From the NCBI RefSeq assembly GCF_053078305.1, contig NZ_CP166879.1: a DNA stretch of 64,000 bases. The stretch is one strand, 5' to 3'. Shown piece after piece: positions 2,619 to 18,903 of this stretch. Position 1 is the first letter of the stretch. Each line of letters starts with the position of its first letter. Position numbers and translations under genes: made by a program. Under the pieces are notes generated by a model. It had not been told where the DNA came from. It ran no database searches and worked only from the letters and a program-made list of their open reading frames with translations.

Positions 2619-4721
2619 ATGAAGATTTTTTCCGTCCGACAGACCGTTTTGCCCGCCCTGCTTGTCCTTTCCCCCGTTGTTTTTGCCGCTGATGAACAGA
2701 CCATGATTGTCAGTGCCGCGCCGCAGGTGGTTTCAGAACTGGATACCCCTGCAGCAGTAAGCGTGGTGGATGGCGAGGAGATGCGCCTGGCAACACCGCG
2801 CATTAACTTGTCCGAATCACTGACCGGCGTGCCTGGTTTGCAGGTACAAAACCGGCAGAACTATGCGCAAGATTTACAGCTGTCGATTCGCGGATTTGGC
2901 TCCCGTTCCACTTACGGAATTCGCGGTATTCGCCTGTATGTGGACGGTATTCCCGCCACCATGCCCGACGGGCAAGGGCAAACATCCAACATCGATTTAA
3001 GCAGTGTGCAAAATGTGGAAGTGCTGCGTGGCCCCTTCTCTGCCCTGTATGGCAACGCGTCTGGCGGTGTAATGAATGTCACCACCCAGACCGGACAACA
3101 GCCACCAACCATTGAAGCCAGTAGTTACTACGGCAGTTTTGGCAGCTGGCGCTATGGGCTGAAAGCAACGGGCGCAACGGGAGACGGCACACAGCCCGGC
3201 GATGTTGATTACACCGTCTCAACCACGCGTTTTACGACCCACGGCTATCGTGACCATAGTGGCGCACAGAAAAATTTAGCCAATGCCAAACTGGGCGTAC
3301 GCATTGATGAAGCCAGCAAATTAAGCCTGATTTTCAATAGTGTGGATATCAAAGCAGATGACCCGGGTGGGCTAACCAAAGCAGAATGGAAGGCGAATCC
3401 ACAACAAGCGCCTCGTGCAGAACAGTACGACACGCGAAAAACCATCAAGCAAACTCAGGCTGGGTTGCGCTATGAACGTAGCCTGAGTTCGCGGGATGAT
3501 ATGAGTGTGATGATGTATGCCGGAGAGCGAGAAACGACCCAGTACCAGTCAATACCCATGGCGCCACAACTTAACCCGTCACATGCGGGCGGCGTGATTA
3601 CCCTGCAACGCCATTACCAGGGAATAGACAGCCGCTGGACACACCGTGGTGAACTGGGCGTTCCGGTCACGTTCACTACCGGCCTGAACTACGAAAACAT
3701 GAGTGAAAACCGCAAGGGCTACAATAACTTCCGCCTGAATAGCGGCATGCCGGAGTACGGGCAAAAAGGTGAGTTGCGTCGCGACGAACGCAATCTGATG
3801 TGGAACATCGATCCCTATTTACAGACGCAGTGGCAGCTGAGCGAAAAACTGTCGCTGGATGCTGGCGTGCGCTACAGCTCCGTGTGGTTTGATTCCAACG
3901 ACCATTACGTTACTCCGGGTAACGGCGATGACAGCGGTGATGCCAGTTATCACAAATGGCTACCAGCCGGATCGTTAAAATATGCAATGACCGATGCCTG
4001 GAATATCTATCTGGCAGCCGGGCGTGGTTTTGAAACGCCGACGATTAATGAGCTGTCTTATCGCGCTGATGGGCAAAGCGGTATGAACTTTGGTTTAAAA
4101 CCATCCACCAACGATACAATTGAGATCGGCAGTAAAACGCGTATTGGTGATGGGCTGCTTAGTCTCGCATTGTTCCAGACCGACACCGATGATGAAATTG
4201 TTGTCGATAGCAGTAGCGGTGGGCGTACGACTTACAAAAATGCTGGAAAGACCCGTCGTCAAGGCGCTGAACTGGCATGGGATCAACGTTTCGCGGGAGA
4301 TTTTCGCGTAAACGCGTCCTGGACCTGGCTTGATGCGACCTATCGCAGCAATGTTTGCAATGAACAGGATTGTAACGGTAATCGGATGCCAGGGATCGCC
4401 CGTAATATGGGCTTTGCGTCGATAGGTTATGTACCGGAAGATGGCTGGTATGCAGGCACGGAAGCGCGTTATATGGGCGATATTATGGCAGATGATGAAA
4501 ATACGGCCAAGGCGCCGTCTTATACTCTCATCGGCTTATTCACCGGGTATAAATACAATTACCACAATTTAACTGTGGATTTATTTGGTCGTGTCGATAA
4601 TTTATTCGATAAAGAATACGTTGGTTCTGTCATTGTCAATGAGTCAAACGGGCGATATTACGAACCTGCGCCCGGACGAAATTATGGTGTCGGCGTGAAT
4701 ATCGCATGGCGATTTGAGTAA
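2619..4721 (+). CDS. yncD: TonB-dependent outer-membrane receptor
   Basis: 700-aa ORF; signal peptide MKIFSVRQTVLPALLVLSPVVFA; plug/barrel-type sequence with aromatic-rich C-terminus; recognised as YncD. Confidence 0.92.
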   Translation: MKIFSVRQTVLPALLVLSPVVFAADEQTMIVSAAPQVVSELDTPAAVSVVDGEEMRLATPRINLSESLTGVPGLQVQNRQNYAQDLQLSIRGFGSRSTYGIRGIRLYVDGIPATMPDGQGQTSNIDLSSVQNVEVLRGPFSALYGNASGGVMNVTTQTGQQPPTIEASSYYGSFGSWRYGLKATGATGDGTQPGDVDYTVSTTRFTTHGYRDHSGAQKNLANAKLGVRIDEASKLSLIFNSVDIKADDPGGLTKAEWKANPQQAPRAEQYDTRKTIKQTQAGLRYERSLSSRDDMSVMMYAGERETTQYQSIPMAPQLNPSHAGGVITLQRHYQGIDSRWTHRGELGVPVTFTTGLNYENMSENRKGYNNFRLNSGMPEYGQKGELRRDERNLMWNIDPYLQTQWQLSEKLSLDAGVRYSSVWFDSNDHYVTPGNGDDSGDASYHKWLPAGSLKYAMTDAWNIYLAAGRGFETPTINELSYRADGQSGMNFGLKPSTNDTIEIGSKTRIGDGLLSLALFQTDTDDEIVVDSSSGGRTTYKNAGKTRRQGAELAWDQRFAGDFRVNASWTWLDATYRSNVCNEQDCNGNRMPGIARNMGFASIGYVPEDGWYAGTEARYMGDIMADDENTAKAPSYTLIGLFTGYKYNYHNLTVDLFGRVDNLFDKEYVGSVIVNESNGRYYEPAPGRNYGVGVNIAWRFE

Positions 4722-7802: not shown

Positions 7803-8036
7803 TCACAGGATGGTGCCGCCTTTGGTTAACTGTTCATGGCGCGCTTCCATATCTTCTTTATGCTTGCGACCGTGATGAGCAATAGCGGTGCGCAAACGCT
7901 GCTGCTGGGTGTAGCGATCTTCCCGACTTAACTCCGCGTCATCGCTCAGGGCGATTAATAATTCGTTCATATGGGCAATGACGCTCTCTTCAATCGCGGC
8001 ATCCACACGCGCGATGACTTCATCCAGATGCGACAT
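7803..8036 (-). CDS. ydcY: Small protein YdcY (DUF2526)
   Basis: 77-aa ORF, recognised sequence MSHLDEVIARVDAAIEES. Confidence 0.8.
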   Translation of the reverse strand: MSHLDEVIARVDAAIEESVIAHMNELLIALSDDAELSREDRYTQQQRLRTAIAHHGRKHKEDMEARHEQLTKGGTIL

Positions 8037-8121
8037 ACTTTCTCCTTAGCCACTTGTGAAATTTATCGATTCATCCAAATGATATAAGTCTGCGTGGTGC
8101 CGTCAAGCCAGTGAGTAAGAT

Positions 8122-8295
8122 TTAAAACAGTGAAAACAACAGCGCCACCGGGAAACTCATCGGCCATGTTGCCCCCACCAGAAAGGCGCTTAAGAAACGG
8201 ATGCGTTTCTTATCGTGAGAAAGAAACCAAGTGATAAGAAATGCGATTGCTGCCATAACCGCATAAAAAACAAGCATGTGTTGATAGAGAGACAT
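8122..8295 (-). CDS. ortT: Small membrane toxin-like protein OrtT (YdcX)
   Basis: ORF 8122..8343 trimmed to MSLYQHMLVFYAVMAAIAFLITWFL (57 aa, two TM segments). Confidence 0.8.
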   Translation of the reverse strand: MSLYQHMLVFYAVMAAIAFLITWFLSHDKKRIRFLSAFLVGATWPMSFPVALLFSLF

Positions 8296-8489
8296 GTACG
8301 GGCGTCCAGCCAGATGAATAAAACGCGCGCAAATATGCGTCATTTTTTGACGTACATCAAGTTTTTTAACCGGTTTGAGAAAAAAACATCAAACAGCAAC
8401 TTGCCCTTATCCATCTTCAGAATGAGTATTATTGCGGATTTTCTTAACCCGTACTATACACATAGGGGCAATGATAAAAGGTGGCAAAA

Positions 8490-8585
8490 ATGAATGTTTC
8501 CAGTAGAACTGTAGTACTGATAAATGTCTTTGCTGCTGTTGGTTTGTTTACTCTTATCTCTATGAGATTTGGCTGGTTTATTTGA
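8490..8585 (+). CDS. yncL: Small single-TM protein YncL (31 aa)
   Basis: Below the 60-aa ORF-track cutoff; ATG at 8490 preceded by SD aaaggtgg; translation MNVSSRTVVLINVFAAVGLFTLISMRFGWFI; recognised as YncL. Confidence 0.75.
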   Translation: MNVSSRTVVLINVFAAVGLFTLISMRFGWFI

Positions 8586-8607
8586 TGTAGTGATTTTGCA
8601 CGCAGCA

Positions 8608-8642
8608 CGTACTGTCAGAGAAATCAGTGCTCTGACAGTACG
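8608..8642. repeat. Perfect 13-bp inverted repeat (hairpin) downstream of yncL and patD
   Basis: cgtactgtcagag-aaatcagtg-ctctgacagtacg; no adjacent T-tract on either strand. Confidence 0.6.
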
Positions 8643-8681
8643 CAAGATCATCTCATACTCTTACGATCTGCAATATTATCC

Positions 8682-10106
8682 TTAATGTTTAACCATGACG
8701 TGGCGGACGACGGTGTAATCCTCCAGCCCATAAAGTGACATATCCTTGCCGTAACCAGAAAGTTTCTGCCCACCGTGCGGCATTTCACTTACCAGCATGA
8801 AATGGGTATTGACCCAGGTACAACCATATTGCAGCCGTGCACTGACGCGATGCGCCCTGCCCACATCTTTCGTCCATACCGAAGATGCAAGTCCGTACTG
8901 GCTGTCATTCGCCCAGTTCACCACCTGTTCTTCGTTGTCGAAGAGCGTAACACTCACTACTGGACCAAATACCTCTTTTTGCACGATGGCATCGTCCTGT
9001 AATGCGCCAGCCAGCAGCGTCGGCGCATAGTAATAGCCATTACCCTTGCGCTTTTCACCGCCAGTGATCACTTTGATGTGCCCTGTCGCTTTCGCCTCTT
9101 CTACTGCCTTGCTGACGCGTTCGAGATGCGCCAGCGAGCTTAAAGGTCCAAGCTCCGTAGACTCGTCATCCGGCGCACCAGATTTTAACGTTGCCACCGC
9201 AGCACCCAGTTTTTCCACCAGCGTATCGTAAATGCCTTTTTGCGCGTAGATCCGACAAGCCGCAGTACAATCCTGTCCAGCATTGTAATAGCCAAATGTA
9301 CGTACACCTTCGACCACTGCTTCAATATCCGCATCATCAAAAACAATCACTGGCGCTTTGCCACCAAGTTCCATATGAGTACGCTTAATGGACGGCGCGG
9401 TATGGCTGATGATGTGCTCGCCGGTGGCGATAGAGCCCGTCAGCGACACCATCCGCACTTTAGGATGTCCGGTCAGCGGATCGCCCACGGTTTTGCCTCT
9501 GCCAAACAGTACGTTAATCACGCCTGCCGGGAAGATATCTTTCGCCAGCTCTGCCAACTTCAACGCGGTCAGCGGGGTAATTTCTGATGGTTTAAGCACT
9601 ACGCAGTTCCCTGCCGCCAGCGCCGGAGCCAGTTTCCACGCTGCCATCATCAGCGGATAATTCCACGGTGCGATAGAAGCCACGACCCCCAACGGATCGC
9701 GACGGATCATCGAAGTATGACCTTCAAGATATTCACCTGCCGCCAGACCATTCAGACAGCGCGCCGCACCCGCGAAAAAGCGAAAAACATCGACAATCGC
9801 CGGGATTTCATCATTGAACGCACTATGCAGCGGTTTGCCACAATTACGGGACTCCAGTTCGGCAAAAACCTGACCATTTTCTTCGATAACATCAGCCAGT
9901 TTCAGCAGACATTCCGCACGCACTTTCGGCGTGGTTTGCCCCCATTCGGCAAATGCTGCATCTGCCGCGCGCACAGCAGCATCGACCTGCTCTGCGGATG
10001 CCTCGGCAATCTCCAGTAAAACGTCCCCCGTTGCCGGATTATAGACAGGCTGTTTTTCCCCTTCGCCGCTAACCAGTTCTCCGTTAATCAGTAACTTATG
10101 TTGCAT
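8682..10106 (-). CDS. patD: Gamma-aminobutyraldehyde dehydrogenase (aldehyde dehydrogenase family)
   Basis: 474-aa ORF; ALDH motifs MELGGKAP and catalytic-Cys region GQDCTAACR. Confidence 0.92.
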
Positions 10107-10127
10107 AGCATATTCCTGTATCAGTGG

Positions 10128-10922
10128 TTATTGACCATTGTCGCCTTCGCGGGTTAGCCACCAGGCCCCCAGGATCGGCAAGGTTGTTACCAACATAACC
10201 AGCAGTGCCACCACGTTAGTTACCGGTACATCACGCGGTCGCCCAAGCTGATTGAGCAACCACAACGGTAACGTTCGTTCATGACCTGCCGTAAAGGTCG
10301 TAACGATGATTTCATCGAACGACAAGGCAAACGCCAGCATTCCTCCTGCCAGTAACGCCGAACTGAGATTCGGCAACACTACGTAGCGGAAGGTTTGCCA
10401 GCCATTGGCCCCAAGATCCATTGACGCCTCAACCAGACTCCACGAGGTGCGGCGAAAACGGGCGATGACATTGTTAAACACCACCACTACGCAAAAAGTC
10501 GCATGGCCGACCACGATGGTGAAAAATCCCGGCTCCAGATTGATGGTTTTAAAAGCGGTTAATAGCGCCAGACCAGTGACAATGCCCGGCAGCGCAATGG
10601 GCAGCAGCAGTAACAGCGAAATGGCGTTTTTGCCGAAAAAGTCTCGTCGCCACAGCGCGGCAGCTGCAAGCGTCCCTAACACCAGCGCGATTAATGTCGC
10701 CAGCGCCGCCACTTTAAGTGACAGTGTCACGGCATCAAGAATATCACTACGCTGTGCTGCCACGCTAAACCAGCGCAGCGTCAGGCCTTGCGGTGGAAAA
10801 CTAAACGCCGCATCTTCAGTGTTAAACGCATAGGCGGCGATAATCAGGATAGGAAAATGTAGGAAAACTACGCCGCCCCAGGCCGCCAGTTTGAGGAAAA
10901 ACGGTGCGCGTTCAGAGTGCAT
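10128..10922 (-). CDS. ydcV: ABC transporter permease
   Basis: 264-aa polytopic ORF with ABC permease-type sequence; overlaps ydcU stop. Confidence 0.88.
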
Positions 10923-11853
10923 CGAACGCTCCCAGACGTTTCACGAACGCCAGGTACAGTGCGATGAGAACAATCGGCACCAGGGTGAATGCCGCCGCCA
11001 TCGGCATATTGCCAATCGCCCCCTGCTGGGAATAAACCATATTGCCGATAAAATATCCTGGAGGGCCAACCAGTTGCGGGACGATAAAATCACCCAGTGT
11101 GAGTGAGAAGGTAAAGATAGAGCCAGCGGCAATACCCGGGATCGCCAGCGGCAGCACCACATAGCGAAAGGTTTGTCGTGGACGTGCGCCGAGATCAGCT
11201 GACGCCTGCAACAATGACGGCGGCAAACGCTCAAGCGCCGCCTGCACGGGCAGGATCATGAACGGCAGCCAGATATAGAGAAACACCAGAAAGCGCCCCA
11301 GCCCGGAAGTTGACAGCGTATTGCCGCCCACCGCAGGTAATGTAAGGAACGCAGTCAGCAGTGGTTCCAGCCCCAGATGTTGTAAAAACCACTGAGCCAC
11401 GCCATCTTTTGCCAGCAATAACGTCCAGGCATAGGCTTTAACAATGTAGCTCGCCCACATCGGCAACATTACCGCGATATAAAAAAACGCTTTCATTTTT
11501 CCGCTGGTATAGCGCGCCATATACCACGCCATTGGAAAAGCCAGAATGGCGCTGGCGATAGTGACTGCCACAGCCATAGTCAGCGTGCGGAGAATGATGT
11601 CGTAATTTGCCGGATTAAACAGCGCACGGATGTTCGCCAGCGTCAGTTCCGGCGTTACCGACATGGTGAAATCGTCAAAGGTATAAAAGCCCTGCCATAA
11701 CAGCGTTAGCAGCGAGCCGAAATAGACAATGCCAAACCACATTAGCGGGCCAAGCAGCAGCAAAAACAGCCCCAGCCCCGGATTCCGCCAGAAGAAACCG
11801 GACACCTTACCCAGACCTGGACGTGAAGGTGATTGCAATACGTTCATCGCCAT
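10912..11853 (-). CDS. ydcU: ABC transporter permease
   Basis: 313-aa polytopic ORF; adjacent to ydcT. Confidence 0.88.
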
Positions 11854-12867
11854 TCACCTCTCCTCAACCAGCGGCACCATCACATCACGCGACCAGGAAA
11901 CCATCACCTGTTGTCCGGGCGTGAGCGTGGCAGGCAGTTCTTCGCCTGTCATATTGGCCTGACTCACCAGCAGTTTTTCACCGCCGTTCAATTTCAGTTC
12001 AAAACGAGTTGCCGCGCCCTGATATTGCACCGCCTGGATCGTGCCATTGGCCTGCAGTTCACCTGGGGTGTTGAGACGGATATGTTCCGGTCGTAGTGCG
12101 AAGCTTCCCGTCATGCCACAAAGTTTCTCTGCCATCAGTCCATCAAAAACATTCGATGTCCCAACGAATCCGGCAACAAACGGCGTGCGCGGGCGCATAT
12201 AGAGATCGCGCGGGGAATCGACCTGCTCAATGCGTCCATTATTGAAAACCGCCACACGATCGGACATCGATAACGCTTCGCCCTGATCGTGGGTAACGAA
12301 GATAAAAGTGATACCGAGAGACTGTTGCAGTTTTTTCAGTTCCAGCTGCATCTGCTCACGCAATTTGAGATCCAGTGCGCCGAGCGGTTCATCCAACAGC
12401 AATACGCGCGGTTCATTCACCAATGCTCTGGCGATAGCAACCCGCTGGCGCTGACCACCAGAAAGTTGTGACGGTTTACGTTGCCGTACAAACCCCAACG
12501 CCACTTTCTCCAGCGCCTCTTGCGCCATTGCGTGCCGCTGCTTTTTATTCACGCCTTTGACCATCAGCCCATAGGCGACGTTGTCAAGAATCGACATATG
12601 CGGAAATAGCGCGTAGTCCTGAAAGACAGTATTCACGTCCCGCTCCCACGGTGGCAGATTGCTGGCGGGTTTACCAAAGATAGAGATAGCCCCGCCGGAA
12701 AGCTGTTCGAAGCCAGCAATCAGGCGCAGGCAGGTGGTTTTGCCGGAGCCGGACGGCCCCAGCATAGAGAAGAACTCACCATCTTTTATCGCAATACTGA
12801 CGCCATCTACTGCGCGCACGTCACCGTACAACCGCGAGACGTTGTCAAACTCCACTGCGTACGTCAT
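11854..12867 (-). CDS. ydcT: ABC transporter ATP-binding protein
   Basis: ORF 11854..12924 trimmed to MTYAVEFDNV (337 aa); Walker A GPSGSGKTT, ABC signature LSGGQRQRVAIARAL, Walker B LLLDEP. Confidence 0.9.
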   Translation of the reverse strand: MTYAVEFDNVSRLYGDVRAVDGVSIAIKDGEFFSMLGPSGSGKTTCLRLIAGFEQLSGGAISIFGKPASNLPPWERDVNTVFQDYALFPHMSILDNVAYGLMVKGVNKKQRHAMAQEALEKVALGFVRQRKPSQLSGGQRQRVAIARALVNEPRVLLLDEPLGALDLKLREQMQLELKKLQQSLGITFIFVTHDQGEALSMSDRVAVFNNGRIEQVDSPRDLYMRPRTPFVAGFVGTSNVFDGLMAEKLCGMTGSFALRPEHIRLNTPGELQANGTIQAVQYQGAATRFELKLNGGEKLLVSQANMTGEELPATLTPGQQVMVSWSRDVMVPLVEER

Positions 12868-12884
12868 AAAGCACCCCAGCGAAG

Positions 12885-14030
12885 TTAGCGACCGCCCATA
12901 ATGGCAATGTAATCCTGCGTCCAACGACTGTAGGGAACAAACTTGCCCCCTTCTGCTATAGGCGTTTTCCAGAAGGCGATTTTGTCGAAATAGTTAAAAC
13001 CGTTGGTTTCACAACCTTTTTCGCCTAATAACGGACTGGCTTTACACCCTTCCGGCACTACCGGTAACGAGCCAAACCAGGCCGCCACATCGCCCTGCAC
13101 TTTTGGCGTTAATGACCAGTTCATCCATTTGTAGGCGCAAACCGGATGTTTCGCTTCGCTATGTAGCATGGTGGTGTCAGCCCAACCGGTAACGCCCTCC
13201 TTCGGGAAAACGGTAGCGACAGGCTGACCTTCGGCTTTCAAGGCGTTGGCCTGATAGGGCCAGGCACTGGAAGCGACCACACCCTCGTTTTTGAAATCGC
13301 TCATTTGCACGGTAGTGTCATGCCAGTAGCGATGGATCAAACTATGTTGATCACGCAGCACTTTCAGCACCGCCTGGTACTGTTCTTCGGTGAGTTGATA
13401 CGGATCGCTGATGCCCAACTGCGGCTGAGTGGCTTTAACGAACAACGCAGCGTCCGCAATGTAGATAGGGCCATCATAAGCCTGAACGCGGCCTTTATTG
13501 CTCTTGCCGTCCGGCAGATTCTGCTCAACAAAAACCACTTGCCAGCTATCCGGCGGCGTCGGGAAGGTTTTAGTGTTGTACATCAGCAGGTTCGGCCCCC
13601 ATTGGTAAGGTGTACCGTAAACTTTGCCGCCAACGTTAAACCAGTCGCCTTTAACCACGCGCGGATCGAGCGTTTTCCAGTTGGGAATCAATGCGGTATT
13701 AATCGGCTGCACGCGTTTACCCATAATCAAACGCAGCGAGGCATCGCCGGACGCCGTGACCAGATCGTAACCTCCTTTGGTCATCAGGCTGACCATTTCA
13801 TCGGAAGTCGCCGCAGTTTTCACATTCACCGCGCAGCCTGTCTCTTTTTCGAATTGCTTTACCCAGTCGTATTGTTTATCAGTTTGTCCGCGTTCGATAT
13901 ATCCCGGCCAGGCGATAATATCCAGTCGCCCTTCCGGTTTATCTAAATTGGTAGGAGGTTCGGCGGCGTGAGCGGTCATTATTGTCATGCTGAGCGCACA
14001 CAGGCTGCTGCGGGCAAATGTCTTGCTCAT
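12885..14030 (-). CDS. ydcS: Periplasmic substrate-binding protein (polyamine-type ABC system)
   Basis: 381-aa ORF with signal peptide MSKTFARSSLCALSMTIMTAHA. Confidence 0.9.
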   Translation of the reverse strand: MSKTFARSSLCALSMTIMTAHAAEPPTNLDKPEGRLDIIAWPGYIERGQTDKQYDWVKQFEKETGCAVNVKTAATSDEMVSLMTKGGYDLVTASGDASLRLIMGKRVQPINTALIPNWKTLDPRVVKGDWFNVGGKVYGTPYQWGPNLLMYNTKTFPTPPDSWQVVFVEQNLPDGKSNKGRVQAYDGPIYIADAALFVKATQPQLGISDPYQLTEEQYQAVLKVLRDQHSLIHRYWHDTTVQMSDFKNEGVVASSAWPYQANALKAEGQPVATVFPKEGVTGWADTTMLHSEAKHPVCAYKWMNWSLTPKVQGDVAAWFGSLPVVPEGCKASPLLGEKGCETNGFNYFDKIAFWKTPIAEGGKFVPYSRWTQDYIAIMGGR

Positions 14031-14274
14031 AATGTCTTACTCCTGTCGTAATTAATTGTTCAGCCGCCGTGCCGTAAAAATATCTCCTTGTTTAACCATA
14101 GACGGCGGCTTGCAGGCACACCTTCGCCCCTGAGAAAATTTAATCAGGTTGTGAGCTACCGCGCATTATGCCGTCTGTAAGGTTATCTTCTGGAGTATAG
14201 ACAAGGAGTTAGGAAATATGACTGCTATTCGAAATTCATATTACCCAATCTAAGAGGAATTAAATTAAACGCTA

Positions 14275-15681
14275 TTACAGCCGTTCTTGAATAAGTTTGC
14301 CTAATTGTTTTACCGCCTGTTCTTCACGTTCTCCCCACTGCCACGCGGTATTAAAACGAAAAAAACGTGACCAGTTTTCACCGGTAGAAAACATTTTACC
14401 CGGCGCAATACTGATATGATGCGTCAGTGCCGCCAGGCTCAATTCGCCGGCATCTAACGGCTCGGGGAGCTCCAGCCAGAGAAAATAACCGCTGTCATTA
14501 TGATGAATTTTCACTTCCGCAGGCAGATAACGCAGCAGTGCCTGCCAGGCACGTTGTTTACGTTCCGCAAGCTGGCGACGCAGGCGACGAAGATGGGCGT
14601 CGTATCGGCGCGTGGAAAGGTAATCCACCAGCGCAAGCTGCATCGGTGAGCTGGTGGAAAGCGTACTCATCAACTGCAAGCGTTGAATTTTACGTGCATG
14701 TTTTCCGGCGGCGACCCAACCAATACGAAAACCAGGCACCAGACATTTCGAAAACGAAGAGCAATGCAAAACGCCATCGTGGCGATCCCACGCTTTCGCA
14801 GGCAGCGGTTTTTCCCGTCCAAAATAAAGTTCGCTGTAAACGTCATCTTCAATCAGCGTTACGTTGTACTGATTGAGTAACGCCACCAGTTTTGCTTTTT
14901 TTTGCGGCGTTAAGGTAAATCCGAGTGGGTTCTGGCTATTAGTCATCAGCCAGCACGCTTTCACCGGATACTCCTGCAACGCCAGTTCCAGCGCCTGAAG
15001 ATCGATCCCTTCTTTAACATCCGTCGCTACCGATAACGCTTTCAGCCGTAGCCGTTCCAGCGCCTGCAACGCGCCATAGAAACAAGGATTCTCTACTATC
15101 ACCCAATCGCCCGGTTCAGTTACCGCTTGCAAACTGAGGTTTAATGCTTCTAACGCCCCGGCAGTGATGACAATTTCATCAGGAGAAATGGTGATGCCCT
15201 GTAAGGCATAGCGACGAGCAATAGCCTGACGCAGTTCTGCGTTTCCTGGCGGTAAGTTTTCAATCACACTCATCGCTGTGGCGGTTTTGCTTACCTGCGC
15301 CAGCGAGCGGTTTAGTTGTTGGAGGGGGAAAAGTCGCGGGTCGGGAAAGGCCGAGGCAAACGGAACGACCGACGGATCGCGACTGGCCTGCAACATATCA
15401 AAAATATAAGTGTTGATATCGACTGCTTCATCTCGAGTGACTGGAATGACTGGCACTTTCGGCATTTTTATTGCCTGTGGCGCAACGTAATAACCCGACT
15501 GCGGTCGTGCGATAATATATCCCTGACTTTCGAGCAACTGATAGGCATGGCTGACAGTCATAAAGCTCATGCCAGAAAGCGCCACCTGGTCACGCAACGA
15601 AGGCAAACGATCGCCGGGTTGCCAGATACCCGACGCAATCTGCTCGCGTAATTGTTCTGCAAGCTGCTGGTATTTTTTCAT
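14275..15681 (-). CDS. ydcR: MocR-family regulator (GntR HTH fused to aminotransferase-like domain)
   Basis: 468-aa ORF; N-terminal HTH (LPSLRDQVALSGMSFMTVSHAYQLL) and large PLP-fold C-terminal domain. Confidence 0.88.
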   Translation of the reverse strand: MKKYQQLAEQLREQIASGIWQPGDRLPSLRDQVALSGMSFMTVSHAYQLLESQGYIIARPQSGYYVAPQAIKMPKVPVIPVTRDEAVDINTYIFDMLQASRDPSVVPFASAFPDPRLFPLQQLNRSLAQVSKTATAMSVIENLPPGNAELRQAIARRYALQGITISPDEIVITAGALEALNLSLQAVTEPGDWVIVENPCFYGALQALERLRLKALSVATDVKEGIDLQALELALQEYPVKACWLMTNSQNPLGFTLTPQKKAKLVALLNQYNVTLIEDDVYSELYFGREKPLPAKAWDRHDGVLHCSSFSKCLVPGFRIGWVAAGKHARKIQRLQLMSTLSTSSPMQLALVDYLSTRRYDAHLRRLRRQLAERKQRAWQALLRYLPAEVKIHHNDSGYFLWLELPEPLDAGELSLAALTHHISIAPGKMFSTGENWSRFFRFNTAWQWGEREEQAVKQLGKLIQERL

Positions 15682-15759
15682 TATCGAATCGTAATTATGT
15701 GCAGATGATTCGGCAGTCTATATCAGTTGTTAAAAATGACAACTTTTCGTTAACTGTAA

Positions 15760-16176
<417 letters not shown>

Positions 16177-16221
16177 AATTTCGACTGTCTCTCGCATGTC
16201 ATTAACCTTTTTAATTGGCGA

Positions 16222-16398
16222 TTAACTCAAACCGAGTTGTTTCAGGATTGCTTTACGCAATGGTTCTTTAATCTCATCGCAGGGGTGACGCGGCATGACA
16301 CTGCGCATCCCATGAAACCTGAGTTTCAAATGGTTGCTGCCATTCGCTACATCGACGCCCTGAGATTCGAGCCAACGTCTGAACTCGCTTTGTTTCAC
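16222..16398 (-). CDS. hicA: HicA mRNA-interferase toxin (type II TA), GTG start
   Basis: Missed by ORF track (58 aa); hand translation of minus strand gives VKQSEFRRWLESQGVDVANGSNHLKLRFHGMRSVMPRHPCDEIKEPLRKAILKQLGLS; SD GGGAGG 5 nt upstream of GTG. Confidence 0.85.
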   Translation of the reverse strand: MKQSEFRRWLESQGVDVANGSNHLKLRFHGMRSVMPRHPCDEIKEPLRKAILKQLGLS

Positions 16399-16430
16399 AT
16401 CGCCTCCCTGCCGCTGAGTATATCAACAAA

Positions 16431-16448
16431 GTAAACATTTGTGTTTAC
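16431..16448. promoter_or_regulatory. Palindrome in hicAB promoter region (candidate operator)
   Basis: Perfect 7-bp inverted repeat GTAAACA-tttg-TGTTTAC about 35-50 bp upstream of hicA start; TATACT -10-like hexamer nearby on minus strand. Confidence 0.3.
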
Positions 16449-16619
16449 CTCCGTGCGTAATTTGCTCGAAAATAGCAATAAATCGCCGCAACGGCAGAAT
16501 GCAATGCAAAATCAGGAAGGAAGATTCCAGAATTTCTTTGCGCTAATTTGCAAAACTGAATAATAACCTAAAGAAACTATCGGCATCATAGCGGCAAAAG
16601 GTAAGAAAAAGGTGGCAGG

Positions 16620-16850
16620 ATGTTTACGAAGGCGTTATCGGTTGTCTTATTAACGTGTGCGCTGTTCTCAGGACAACTCATGGCAGGGCACAAAGGACAT
16701 GAATTTGTGTGGGTAAAGAATGTGGATCATCAGCTGCGTCATGAAGCGGACAGCGATGAATTGCGTGCTGTGGCGGAAGAGTCGGCGGAAGGTTTGCGCG
16801 AGCATTTTTACTGGCAAAAATCGCGCAAACCAGAAGCGGGACAACGTTGA
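16620..16850 (+). CDS. yncJ: Small secreted protein YncJ
   Basis: 76-aa ORF with signal peptide MFTKALSVVLLTCALFSGQLMA. Confidence 0.85.
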   Translation: MFTKALSVVLLTCALFSGQLMAGHKGHEFVWVKNVDHQLRHEADSDELRAVAEESAEGLREHFYWQKSRKPEAGQR

Positions 16851-16857
16851 GTCGTTT

Positions 16858-16893
16858 GATGCCGGATGCGGCGTAACGCCTTACCCGGCAGGC
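16858..16893. repeat. REP (repetitive extragenic palindromic) element
   Basis: gccggatgcggcgtaacgccttacccggc matches the E. coli REP consensus family; lies just after yncJ stop. Confidence 0.65.
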
Positions 16894-16941
16894 AATATCA
16901 TGCAGATTCAATGAGTGGTGAGTAACCAGAAAACTGGCGTT

Positions 16942-18903
16942 TTACCCTTTTCGCTTCGGCAATGTTTTCAGCAGCTCATCCGGACTTACGGATGCCACTA
17001 CGCTTCCCGGTAAAGGCATTTTCAGTATGTGATTTTTGATTTTGCCAATGACGTGCATCTCGCATGGGCGGCAATCAAACTTTAGCGTTAATACTTCATC
17101 GCCGTTAACCAGTTGCATTGGCGTAGCCTTCCAGCTTTTGATATTGCCTTTCGCTTGTTTCGGGCACAGATTAAAGGCAAAGCGCAGACAATGCTTGGTG
17201 ATCATCACCGGGACTTCGCCCTTCTCTTCATGTGCCTCATACGCCGCGTCAATCAGCTGCACACCATAGCGATGATAAAATTCACGTGCTTTCTGGTTGT
17301 AAACGTTCGCGAGGAAACTCAGATGCGTTTGCGGATAAACCGGCGCAGGATCAGCAACCGGTTTACGGCTGCCGCGCTGGTAACTGGCAAGACGCGCAGC
17401 ATCCAGCATGTCAGCAGCTTCACGGCGGAACTGGTTTAACAGACTGTTTGGTACAAACAGCGCCCCCGGCAAATTAATTTGCACATCGCGGGCGTAATAG
17501 ATGGTTTGCCCCAGTTTTGCCAGACCCTCCTTCAGATTGTTCATTGCTTTTTCGGCGTTATTGGCTTCGTCGAACTGCCCATCCAGCGTATGCGTGATGC
17601 TGACCCCCTCTTCACTGGTGAGGGTCAGAATCAATTGTTCCTGCCAACCGCCCAGTTCAATGTCTACCGCCACCCGACGTTCGCTGGAGGTTTTTGTCAG
17701 TGCCTGCTGCCAGTTATGATCAAGATTACGGTTTAGTGGGTGATGCGGGCGAATTTTGTGCAAATCTGCTGGCATTTCATTGGGCCAGACGCGGTACTGA
17801 TTTTCTCCGGTTTTCTCGACCGTATTGGCACGAAAACCGACGACTTCACGTTTAATCAACACGTTCAGGCCATCGCCATTTGCCAGTGGATCGGTAACGG
17901 CAACATCGAGATGATCTTTCGCCACTTTCAATACTTCACCCACCGGCAGGCCGATAAATTTCGGCGAATCGAACGCGCCAATATCGCCTTTACGGGCATT
18001 CACAAAATAATCTGTGCTACCACGATGGAAAGTCTTTTCCGTCGATGGAACAAAGAAATGTTCAGTACGACCTGATGAAGCGCGCGTCAGATCGCCACGT
18101 TCTTCAATAATGGCATCCAGCATCTGGCGATAATGGGCGGTGATATTCTTCACGTAGCTCATATCTTTGTAACGCCCTTCAATCTTGAAGGAGCGTACGC
18201 CAGCATCAATCAGCGCGCCGAGGTTGGCAGTCTGATCGTTATCTTTCATCGACAGCAGATGTTTTTCATAGGAAACCACCCGCCCCTGATCGTCTTTCAA
18301 AGTGTATGGCAAACGGCACGCCTGCGAGCAATCGCCACGGTTGGCGCTACGCCCTGTTTGCGCATGAGAAATGTAGCACTGACCCGAATAGGCCACGCAC
18401 AGTGCGCCATGAATAAAGAATTCAATGGTCGCGTCCGTGGCCTGGTGAATCGCGCGGATCTGATCAAGATTCAGCTCTCGCGCCAGCACAATCTGCGTGA
18501 AGCCAACATCAGAGAGGAACTTCGCTTTTTCTACTGTACGAATGTCGCACTGCGTACTGGCGTGCAGTTCAATCGGCGGAATATCAAGTTCCAGAATCCC
18601 CATATCCTGAACAATCAGCGCATCGACACCGGTCTGGTAGAGGTCAGTAATCAGCCGTTGCGCGGGTTCCAGCTCATCATCATGCAAAATGGTGTTAAGC
18701 GTGACGAAAATTTTTGCACCATAACGATGGGCAAACGGCACCAGCTCGGCAATATCTTTCAGGCTATTACTGGCATTATGACGGGCACCAAAACCAGGGC
18801 CGCCGATATAAACAGCATCGGCACCGTGCAAAATAGCTTCGCGGGCAATGGCGGCATCGCGTGCCGGGCTTAACAGTTCAAGTCGATGAGAAGATACGGT
18901 CAC
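16942..18903 (-). CDS. rlhA: Peptidase-U32-family protein RlhA (YdcP; 23S rRNA hydroxycytidine synthase)
   Basis: ORF 16942..18945 (GTG at 18945); start set at second in-frame GTG (VTVSSHRLELLSPA) to match my recalled 653-aa length; start uncertain by 14 codons. Confidence 0.85.
   Translation of the reverse strand: MTVSSHRLELLSPARDAAIAREAILHGADAVYIGGPGFGARHNASNSLKDIAELVPFAHRYGAKIFVTLNTILHDDELEPAQRLITDLYQTGVDALIVQDMGILELDIPPIELHASTQCDIRTVEKAKFLSDVGFTQIVLARELNLDQIRAIHQATDATIEFFIHGALCVAYSGQCYISHAQTGRSANRGDCSQACRLPYTLKDDQGRVVSYEKHLLSMKDNDQTANLGALIDAGVRSFKIEGRYKDMSYVKNITAHYRQMLDAIIEERGDLTRASSGRTEHFFVPSTEKTFHRGSTDYFVNARKGDIGAFDSPKFIGLPVGEVLKVAKDHLDVAVTDPLANGDGLNVLIKREVVGFRANTVEKTGENQYRVWPNEMPADLHKIRPHHPLNRNLDHNWQQALTKTSSERRVAVDIELGGWQEQLILTLTSEEGVSITHTLDGQFDEANNAEKAMNNLKEGLAKLGQTIYYARDVQINLPGALFVPNSLLNQFRREAADMLDAARLASYQRGSRKPVADPAPVYPQTHLSFLANVYNQKAREFYHRYGVQLIDAAYEAHEEKGEVPVMITKHCLRFAFNLCPKQAKGNIKSWKATPMQLVNGDEVLTLKFDCRPCEMHVIGKIKNHILKMPLPGSVVASVSPDELLKTLPKRKG

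Follow-up and report, generated by a model that had tools for sequence, protein, structure and literature searches.

Two neighbouring and probably separately controlled units at the ydcR-ydcSTUV-patD locus of Escherichia coli

The ydcR-ydcSTUV-patD locus of Escherichia coli places the gene for a transcription factor of the MocR type directly beside genes for an ATP-binding cassette (ABC) importer and a gamma-aminobutyraldehyde dehydrogenase, and this arrangement raises the question of whether the regulator governs its neighbours and what the importer carries. We addressed it in a 64,000-nucleotide stretch of contig NZ_CP166879.1 (RefSeq assembly GCF_053078305.1), hereafter the window, for which a first-pass annotation made from the sequence alone had proposed that all six genes form one uptake and catabolism unit and probably a single operon. 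Using comparative genomics, sequence profile searches and the published literature we find it probable that the locus instead comprises two neighbouring, separately controlled units, namely the operon ydcSTUV-patD and an autoregulated ydcR whose product is not the dedicated regulator of that operon. The locus is already known and its essentials are already found in databases or papers: the genes, their order, spacing and products are the same as those of E. coli K-12 ydcSTUV-patD (b1440-b1444) and ydcR (b1439), from which the window differs in nothing material.

Reading of the open reading frames recovered six intact genes spanning positions 8682-15681 on the minus strand, with exactly the boundaries given by the first-pass annotation and with an identical annotation in RefSeq (Table 1); the start of ydcT is the RefSeq one, the mechanical list of frames having a longer version with a TTG start. 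The junctions from ydcS to patD measure 17, 0, -11 and 21 bp: the start of ydcU abuts the stop of ydcT (TGAATG), and the 11-bp overlap of ydcU and ydcV previously pointed out is real (10912-10922). The tight spacing that had been taken to join all six genes thus holds for ydcSTUV-patD; it does not extend to ydcR, which is separated from ydcS by 244 bp as against at most 21 bp at the four other junctions. While the five genes from ydcS to patD combine tight or overlapping junctions with conservation as a block in distant taxa, as expected of an operon, a six-gene operon with short gaps and no internal promoter is at odds with a 244-bp gap that contains promoter-like blocks.

To characterize this spacer we assembled 80 loci centred on ydcR from 80 Enterobacteriaceae species, mapped the neighbouring genes by tblastn, and derived a phylogenetic footprint from an alignment of 26 Enterobacteriaceae sequences. 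This revealed a cross-genus consensus, CTAACyCCTTGTCTATAMTCC, which holds a -10 element of the sigma-S type (CTATACT), along with the further blocks GnAATGCGC-N6-GTCACAACCTGATnAAATTTCC and GCGCCGTCTA...AGGGAGATATTTTTACGGCACGGCTGCCGC. The order ydcR-ydcSTUV-patD is seen in about 64 of the 80 loci. In another 12 patD directly follows ydcR and ydcSTUV is missing, the species concerned including Salmonella enterica diarizonae, Citrobacter sedlakii, members of the Enterobacter cloacae/hormaechei group, Pseudocitrobacter faecalis and Superficieibacter. At least five of these 12 species, with Salmonella, C. sedlakii and Pseudocitrobacter among them, have blocks of the ydcS-type spacer in front of patD, and the simplest explanation is that ydcSTUV was deleted from between a retained promoter/leader and patD, which suggests that the transporter has been lost by repeated clean deletions. 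Because the blocks are retained before patD, the spacer appears to be a promoter region in its own right, in agreement with the literature that places ydcSTUV-patD, as a single operon, in the Ntr-Nac and RpoS regulons (PMC12608037, PMC6053447, PMC6135910).

Several further readings of the spacer were tried and set aside. A structured RNA in the ydcS leader is not favored by the minimum free energy (z-score -0.33) or by RNAalifold across 19 genera, which gave -7.76 kcal/mol, a covariation contribution of -0.02 and a single compensatory pair, and an Rfam scan of positions 8000-17000 at E<=1 returned no match within the locus. A sigma-54 promoter in the ACGGCACGGCTGCCGC block would fit the GG-N10-GC pattern in most genera, but Escherichia has GA at -12 and Salmonella lacks the block; for AATGCGC-N5-GTCACA as an NtrC-like site the spacing is wrong. 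Within 14062-14169 two blocks, AATGCGC..GTCACAACCTGATnAAATTT and GCCGTCTA..AGGGAGATATTTTTACGGCACGG, are at least 90% conserved across genera, and two GGA motifs there, one within the Shine-Dalgarno sequence (SD), might be CsrA sites. Individual loci depart from the common layout: in C. amalonaticus ydcS is truncated, ydcT is down to 70% identity and no ydcU match passes the coverage filter; insertions of 4.3 kb in Trabulsiella and 2.5 kb in Klebsiella indica lie between ydcR and ydcS; and one locus (L031) has neither the transporter nor patD downstream of ydcR.

YdcR itself combines an N-terminal GntR winged helix-turn-helix (wHTH) domain (PF00392, E=1.1e-14, residues 3-66) with a C-terminal fold-type-I aminotransferase-like domain (PF00155, Aminotran_1_2, E=1e-33, residues 141-445) that bears the lysine motif for pyridoxal 5'-phosphate (PLP), SSFSK, at K312; binding of PLP has been shown by mass spectrometry of the intact protein (PMC9321722). 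In NCBIfam it falls below the cutoffs of GabR, PdxR, PtsJ, EhuR, MocR and YczR (the best, PdxR, at 267.5 vs 320 bits; GabR at 123.2 vs 600), and the effectors of these characterized regulators therefore cannot be transferred to it.

An alignment of the 160 bp upstream of ydcR uncovered a conserved 41-bp inverted repeat, ATAACAGTT-N23-AACTGATAT, whose copy in the window reads ATTACAGTT-N23-AACTGATAT (15720-15760) and whose ydcR-proximal arm overlaps an extended -10, TGATATAGACT, at 15715-15725. It is the only such pair in the window, and a scan with single arms gave no other pair nearby. Allowing up to three mismatches, we counted this predicted operator in 74 of the 80 loci at a position within 200 bp upstream of ydcR, in 36 of 70 upstream of cioA, in none of 77 spacers before ydcS or patD, and at seven places elsewhere in 1.6 Mb. 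The cioA gene belongs to a divergent operon for a cytochrome bd-type oxidase, cioA-cioB-DUF2474, which lies upstream of ydcR in 70 of the 80 loci and also in Cronobacter; where insertions separate cioA from ydcR, a second copy of the operator adjoins cioA. This operon is missing in Escherichia and Salmonella, and in E. coli hicAB and yncJ occupy its place. In K-12 the operator core is also present upstream of ylaC, as AACTGTTAT-N15-ATCTGTTAC (positions 4323-4355 of locus L082). The half-sites at ylaC form a direct repeat, those at ydcR and cioA an inverted repeat with a 23-bp spacer.

Thus, the distribution of the operator upstream of ydcR, cioA and ylaC independently reproduces a published regulon reconstruction, in which the YdcR regulog comprises ylaC and cydAB-like genes with PF10617 (DUF2474), and of which ydcSTUV is not a member (PMC5320631, supplement). 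YdcR has the features of its orthologous group among the MocR/GabR-type regulators (Suvorova and Rodionov 2016): the GntR wHTH joined to the aminotransferase-like domain with the SSFSK lysine at 312, an inverted-repeat operator whose arms lie some three helical turns from each other, and, in most relatives, a divergent target operon; in Escherichia the cioAB-like target is gone and hicAB and yncJ stand there instead. Direct binding data point the same way. In an electrophoretic mobility shift assay (EMSA) E. coli YdcR shifted a 189-bp PydcR fragment from 50 nM, and the negative control that remained unshifted was the 244-bp ydcR-ydcS intergenic fragment (PMC9321722 and its supporting information, which also states that the ydcSTUV-patD operon has its own promoter). 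The operator at 15720-15760 falls inside the shifted fragment. In Salmonella, YdcR directly activates srfN and not patD (PMC7400052).

The products of the five-gene operon fall into families that the first-pass annotation had named correctly, as judged by Pfam and NCBIfam. YdcS passes the NCBIfam YdcS equivalog NF041888 (812.5 bits against a cutoff of 725), has Pfam matches to SBP_bac_8, SBP_bac_1 and SBP_bac_6 only, and recovers solute-binding protein (SBP) families only in NCBIfam and PDB. YdcT has ABC_tran and TOBE_2 (257-331) domains, a Walker A motif GPSGSGKT at 37-44 and LSGGQ at 135, and among NCBIfam models scores best against PotA, as YdcU does against PotB (120 bits, under the cutoff of 348) and YdcV against PotC (146 bits, under 326). 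Together with the two BPD_transp_1 permeases this makes up the complete set of parts of a type I ABC importer. PatD passes the aminobutyraldehyde dehydrogenase equivalog TIGR03374 (1037.8 against 909.3 bits; Pfam Aldedh, E=1.4e-167) and retains intact catalytic motifs, MELGGKAP with E246 and GQDC with C280. The activity of PatD on gamma-aminobutyraldehyde is established. These features support the prediction that ydcSTUV-patD encodes a PotABCD-like ABC importer in one tightly packed unit with a gamma-aminobutyraldehyde dehydrogenase. The closest known systems are PotABCD and PotFGHI (TC 3.A.1.11), which share the four-component plan and provide the best family matches for every YdcSTUV component. 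However, all Pot equivalog scores of the Ydc proteins are far under cutoff (YdcT reaches 359 vs 482 bits for PotA, and YdcS 61.6 vs 636 for PotF and 46.6 vs 582 for PotD), and the ydc operon differs in having the SBP gene first and an aldehyde dehydrogenase gene last.

The same cassette occurs outside Enterobacteriaceae under different company. Orthologs of YdcS 75-86% identical to that of the window are present in Pseudomonas, Serratia, Lonsdalea, Brenneria and Rahnella, and we sampled the gene context in five genomes (Serratia marcescens, Metapseudomonas otitidis, P. parafulva, Lonsdalea and Rahnella). All five display the series LysR, a second dehydrogenase of the aminobutyraldehyde dehydrogenase (ABALDH) subfamily (485-487 aa), ydcS, ydcT, ydcU, ydcV and patD, the five shared genes having 67-88% amino-acid identity to those of the window, and in none was a MocR gene found within 8-10 kb of the cassette. 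Gene order and permease overlap are the same as in E. coli, which in contrast lacks the LysR gene, the upstream second ABALDH and spdH, and has ydcR upstream with a different promoter region. In Serratia marcescens and Metapseudomonas otitidis the cassette is followed by a full-length homolog of the P. aeruginosa spermidine dehydrogenase SpdH, a flavoprotein of 620-636 aa with a twin-arginine signal, M-x-I-T-R-R-D-F-L (TRRDFL); it was identified by the PDB sequence search (7D9F, E=1e-245), NCBIfam giving only a weak PigB match. In Serratia a gene for a cytochrome c with a Sec signal comes after spdH. SpdH converts spermidine to 1,3-diaminopropane and 4-aminobutanal, and spermine to spermidine and 3-aminopropanal (PMC9397018). 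The SpdH and cytochrome c neighbors therefore tie the cassette firmly to polyamine catabolism. A SnoaL-like protein of 158 aa is encoded between patD and spdH in Metapseudomonas otitidis (locus L083, 15947-16423).

As to what YdcS might bind, its crystal structure is available (PDB 6NLP), and one modelling paper describes it as a closed state; we found no description of a ligand in it in the literature searched. The next closest solved proteins, at low identity, are SpuE (E=5.7e-20) and PotF (E~1e-17). The transporter has been labelled a 'putative putrescine transporter' in a study in which the operon was induced in the colonised gut (PMC10936423), and has been listed as a putrescine importer (PMC8674398). 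The literature searched yielded no demonstration of the YdcSTUV substrate, in keeping with the caution of the first-pass annotation that neither the substrate nor the effector of YdcR is firmly established. We mapped the PotF binding site onto YdcS through a low-identity HMMER alignment (E about 1e-17) supplemented by a comparison of N-terminal motifs. On this map the PotF residues W37, Y40 and W244 correspond to W41, Y44 and W257 of YdcS, F276 (W271 in SpuE) to W283, and D278 to D285; D39 is replaced by G43, E185 by Y190, and D247 is deleted. The residues D39, E185 and D247 are three of the four acidic positions with which PotF clamps putrescine, and the SpuE-type tryptophan is linked to a preference for spermidine. 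The pattern argues that YdcS probably does not bind putrescine in the PotF manner, and is best taken as a lead and not as a test. YdcSTUV may take up a polyamine itself or the products of its cleavage in the periplasm.

Putting these observations together, we propose that ydcS-ydcT-ydcU-ydcV-patD would have a promoter of its own within the 244-bp spacer, where the sigma-S-type CTATACT -10 and an upstream LysR/Nac-like box would fit the reported dependence on RpoS and Nac. In the periplasm YdcS would capture a small amine related to polyamines, which YdcTUV would carry into the cell at the expense of ATP. PatD would oxidise 4-aminobutanal to gamma-aminobutyrate (GABA) with NAD+. This aldehyde would either arise inside the cell, in E. 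coli through the action of PatA on the imported amine, or enter ready-made, and GABA would then feed nitrogen and carbon into the GabT/GabD route. The family of PatD, the ABC plan of the transporter and the conservation of the block are shown; both the substrate and the promoter assignment in this scheme are what we infer. YdcR, for its part, would bind the 41-bp inverted repeat over its own promoter and thereby regulate its own expression. Its ancestral partner would be the divergent cioA-cioB-DUF2474 oxidase operon, lost in Escherichia, with ylaC as the remaining predicted target in E. coli, so that YdcR would adjoin the transporter operon by conserved gene order. Most likely, then, YdcR does not control ydcSTUV-patD.

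A number of observations weigh against this proposal. The assignment of the spacer blocks to sigma-S or Nac is pattern-based and takes its lead from the reported regulation. The consensus scan found no terminator-like site between ydcR and ydcS, and read-through from PydcR may therefore add to expression of the operon; in general this promoter and terminator scan gave no more sites than shuffled sequences; it placed two sigma-70-like sites upstream of ydcR. The authors of the EMSA study described PydcR as 'upstream of a putrescine transporter' (PMC9321722). In 77 of the 80 Enterobacteriaceae species ydcR is followed by ydcSTUV-patD or by patD, which leaves room for a functional tie. Finally, the substrate is a proposal, and YdcS lacks, as far as a low-identity alignment can tell, acidic counterparts of three of the four PotF clamp residues.

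Some of these points are what one would expect if the six genes were a single YdcR-controlled module, possibly one operon, in which YdcR would use its PLP domain to detect GABA or the amine brought in and would switch on ydcSTUV-patD. All six genes run in the same direction, no terminator is predicted after ydcR, and their order has been kept, with or without the transporter, in nearly all of the species examined. MocR relatives such as GabR sense GABA, and kinship with GabR would lend this reading some plausibility, though the NCBIfam GabR match of YdcR is far below cutoff. Nonetheless, we regard it as quite unlikely: not one of the downstream spacers has the YdcR operator, the ydcR-ydcS fragment was the very control that failed to shift in the EMSA (PMC9321722), the cassette outside Enterobacteriaceae uses a LysR regulator, both the regulog (PMC5320631) and Salmonella proteomics (PMC7400052) indicate other targets, and the operon responds to Nac and RpoS. 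Of the one unit that the first-pass annotation had drawn, the tightly packed importer and aldehyde dehydrogenase survive, and what is not supported, in view of the spacer blocks, operator counts, EMSA, LysR contexts and regulog, is ydcR as its member or regulator.

The other alternatives concern the cargo. One holds that YdcSTUV is not an amine importer at all, YdcS being a periplasmic synthase of short-chain poly-3-hydroxybutyrate (PHB), or YdcS and YdcV a route for uptake of double-stranded DNA in natural transformation, or both. It draws on reports that a ydcS mutant has an outer membrane with about 30% less PHB of the cPHB type (Dai and Reusch, as cited in PMC3709699) and that transformation was down 6.7-fold in a ydcS and 9.5-fold in a ydcV mutant (Sun 2016, as cited in PMC6135910). 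These effects are of modest size and may have arisen indirectly, for instance via polyamine levels. YdcS matches only type-II solute-binding families and polyamine-binding structures, searches of Pfam, NCBIfam and PDB sequences found no alpha/beta-hydrolase or PhaC/polyhydroxyalkanoate synthase domain in it, the permeases and ATPase are ordinary PotB/C/A-like parts for small molecules, and the cassette always comes with either one or two aminoaldehyde dehydrogenases, a pairing for which DNA or PHB would give no reason; we consider such functions very unlikely. A closer variant is that YdcSTUV imports not putrescine but the products of periplasmic polyamine oxidation (4-aminobutanal/delta-1-pyrroline, 3-aminopropanal and/or 1,3-diaminopropane), with PatD oxidizing the entering aldehyde at once. 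Here the two ABALDH-type dehydrogenases flanking the transporter in Pseudomonas, Serratia, Lonsdalea and Rahnella, and the Tat-exported SpdH and Sec-exported cytochrome c that follow it, would find a ready explanation: SpdH being exported, spermidine cleavage would occur in the periplasm. A YdcS that keeps only D285 of the PotF acidic set would likewise suit such cargo. However, SpdH accompanies only two of the five sampled non-enterobacterial contexts and is absent from E. coli, the residue map depends on a low-identity alignment, and YdcS keeps the SpuE-type tryptophan (W283) tied to spermidine preference. We therefore entertain this possibility tentatively, as unlikely, and continue to prefer a polyamine-related amine as the cargo of a separately controlled operon.

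Table 1. Coordinates of genes and sequence features at the ydcR-ydcSTUV-patD locus (positions in the window)
Feature	Coordinates	Strand	Product or basis
inverted repeat, patD/yncL	8609-8641	.	sequence read
patD (ydcW/prr)	8682-10106	-	NAD-dependent gamma-aminobutyraldehyde dehydrogenase; last operon gene
ydcV	10128-10922	-	PotC-like ABC permease; BPD_transp_1
ydcU	10912-11853	-	PotB-like ABC permease; BPD_transp_1
ydcT	11854-12867	-	PotA-like ABC ATPase; ABC_tran and C-terminal TOBE
ydcS	12885-14030	-	periplasmic substrate-binding protein; first operon gene
ydcR-ydcS spacer	14031-14274	-	conserved promoter/leader blocks
SD GACAGGAGTAA	14037-14047	-	phylogenetic footprint
conserved block	14062-14109	-	phylogenetic footprint
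conserved block	14134-14169	-	phylogenetic footprint
-10 block CTAACTCCTTGTCTATACTCC	14192-14212	-	phylogenetic footprint; sigma-S-type CTATACT at 14194-14200
NAC/LysR-like T-N11-A box	14225-14244	-	phylogenetic footprint
ydcR	14275-15681	-	MocR-type PLP-binding transcription factor; probably a separate unit
predicted YdcR operator	15720-15760	.	41-bp inverted repeat

The block of six genes is core to E. coli: a megablast search with an 8.5-kb stretch recovered it in 5416 records, and at a minimum coverage of 80% it is present in 5398 of the 5426 complete E. coli genomes. The best E. coli genomes are 99.4% identical at the DNA level and most 95-99%, and the six proteins are 99-100% identical to their counterparts in strain PS10-3. 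Only 14 of the 5416 E. coli records reach at least 99% identity over 8000-16500, which indicates that the window comes from a comparatively rare lineage. The genes that RefSeq places around the locus are ortT and yncL at one end and hicAB, yncJ and rlhA at the other. Between the convergent patD and yncL lies a perfect 12-bp inverted repeat, GTACTGTCAGAG-N9-CTCTGACAGTAC, with no T-run, because of which the consensus terminator scan did not report it. It likely marks the 3' end of the operon transcript or stabilizes it, and might serve as a terminator. On the other side hicB and hicA, at 15760-16398, stand where 70 of the 80 related species have cioA-cioB-DUF2474; some loci of Citrobacter and Raoultella have hicAB as an insertion that separates cioA from ydcR, and at least one of them (L013) has a copy of the operator on either side of the insertion. 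Just past hicAB as seen from ydcR is yncJ (DUF2554, 16620-16850), considered here as a possible E. coli counterpart of Salmonella srfN and thus a candidate YdcR target, for which NCBIfam gave no family and upstream of which a strict scan for paired operators found no site. Between yncJ and rlhA, at 16854-16890, there is a sub-threshold Rfam match to naRNA4, which resembles repetitive extragenic palindromic (REP) elements (28.8 bits against a gathering threshold of 59.5).

For annotation, the value of these results is that the adjacency of ydcR to the transporter gives no ground for reading it as the putrescine transporter's regulator, and a better description is that of a regulator orphaned by the loss of an alternative terminal oxidase operon. 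With respect to the operon, which nitrogen limitation and stationary phase induce, the identity of the YdcS ligand would settle one of the remaining unassigned ABC transporters of E. coli and would also explain the constant pairing of this transporter with an aminoaldehyde dehydrogenase. If the import of polyamine-oxidation products proves true, E. coli would keep one half, the scavenging one, of a spermidine dehydrogenase pathway that is encoded whole in Serratia and some Pseudomonas.

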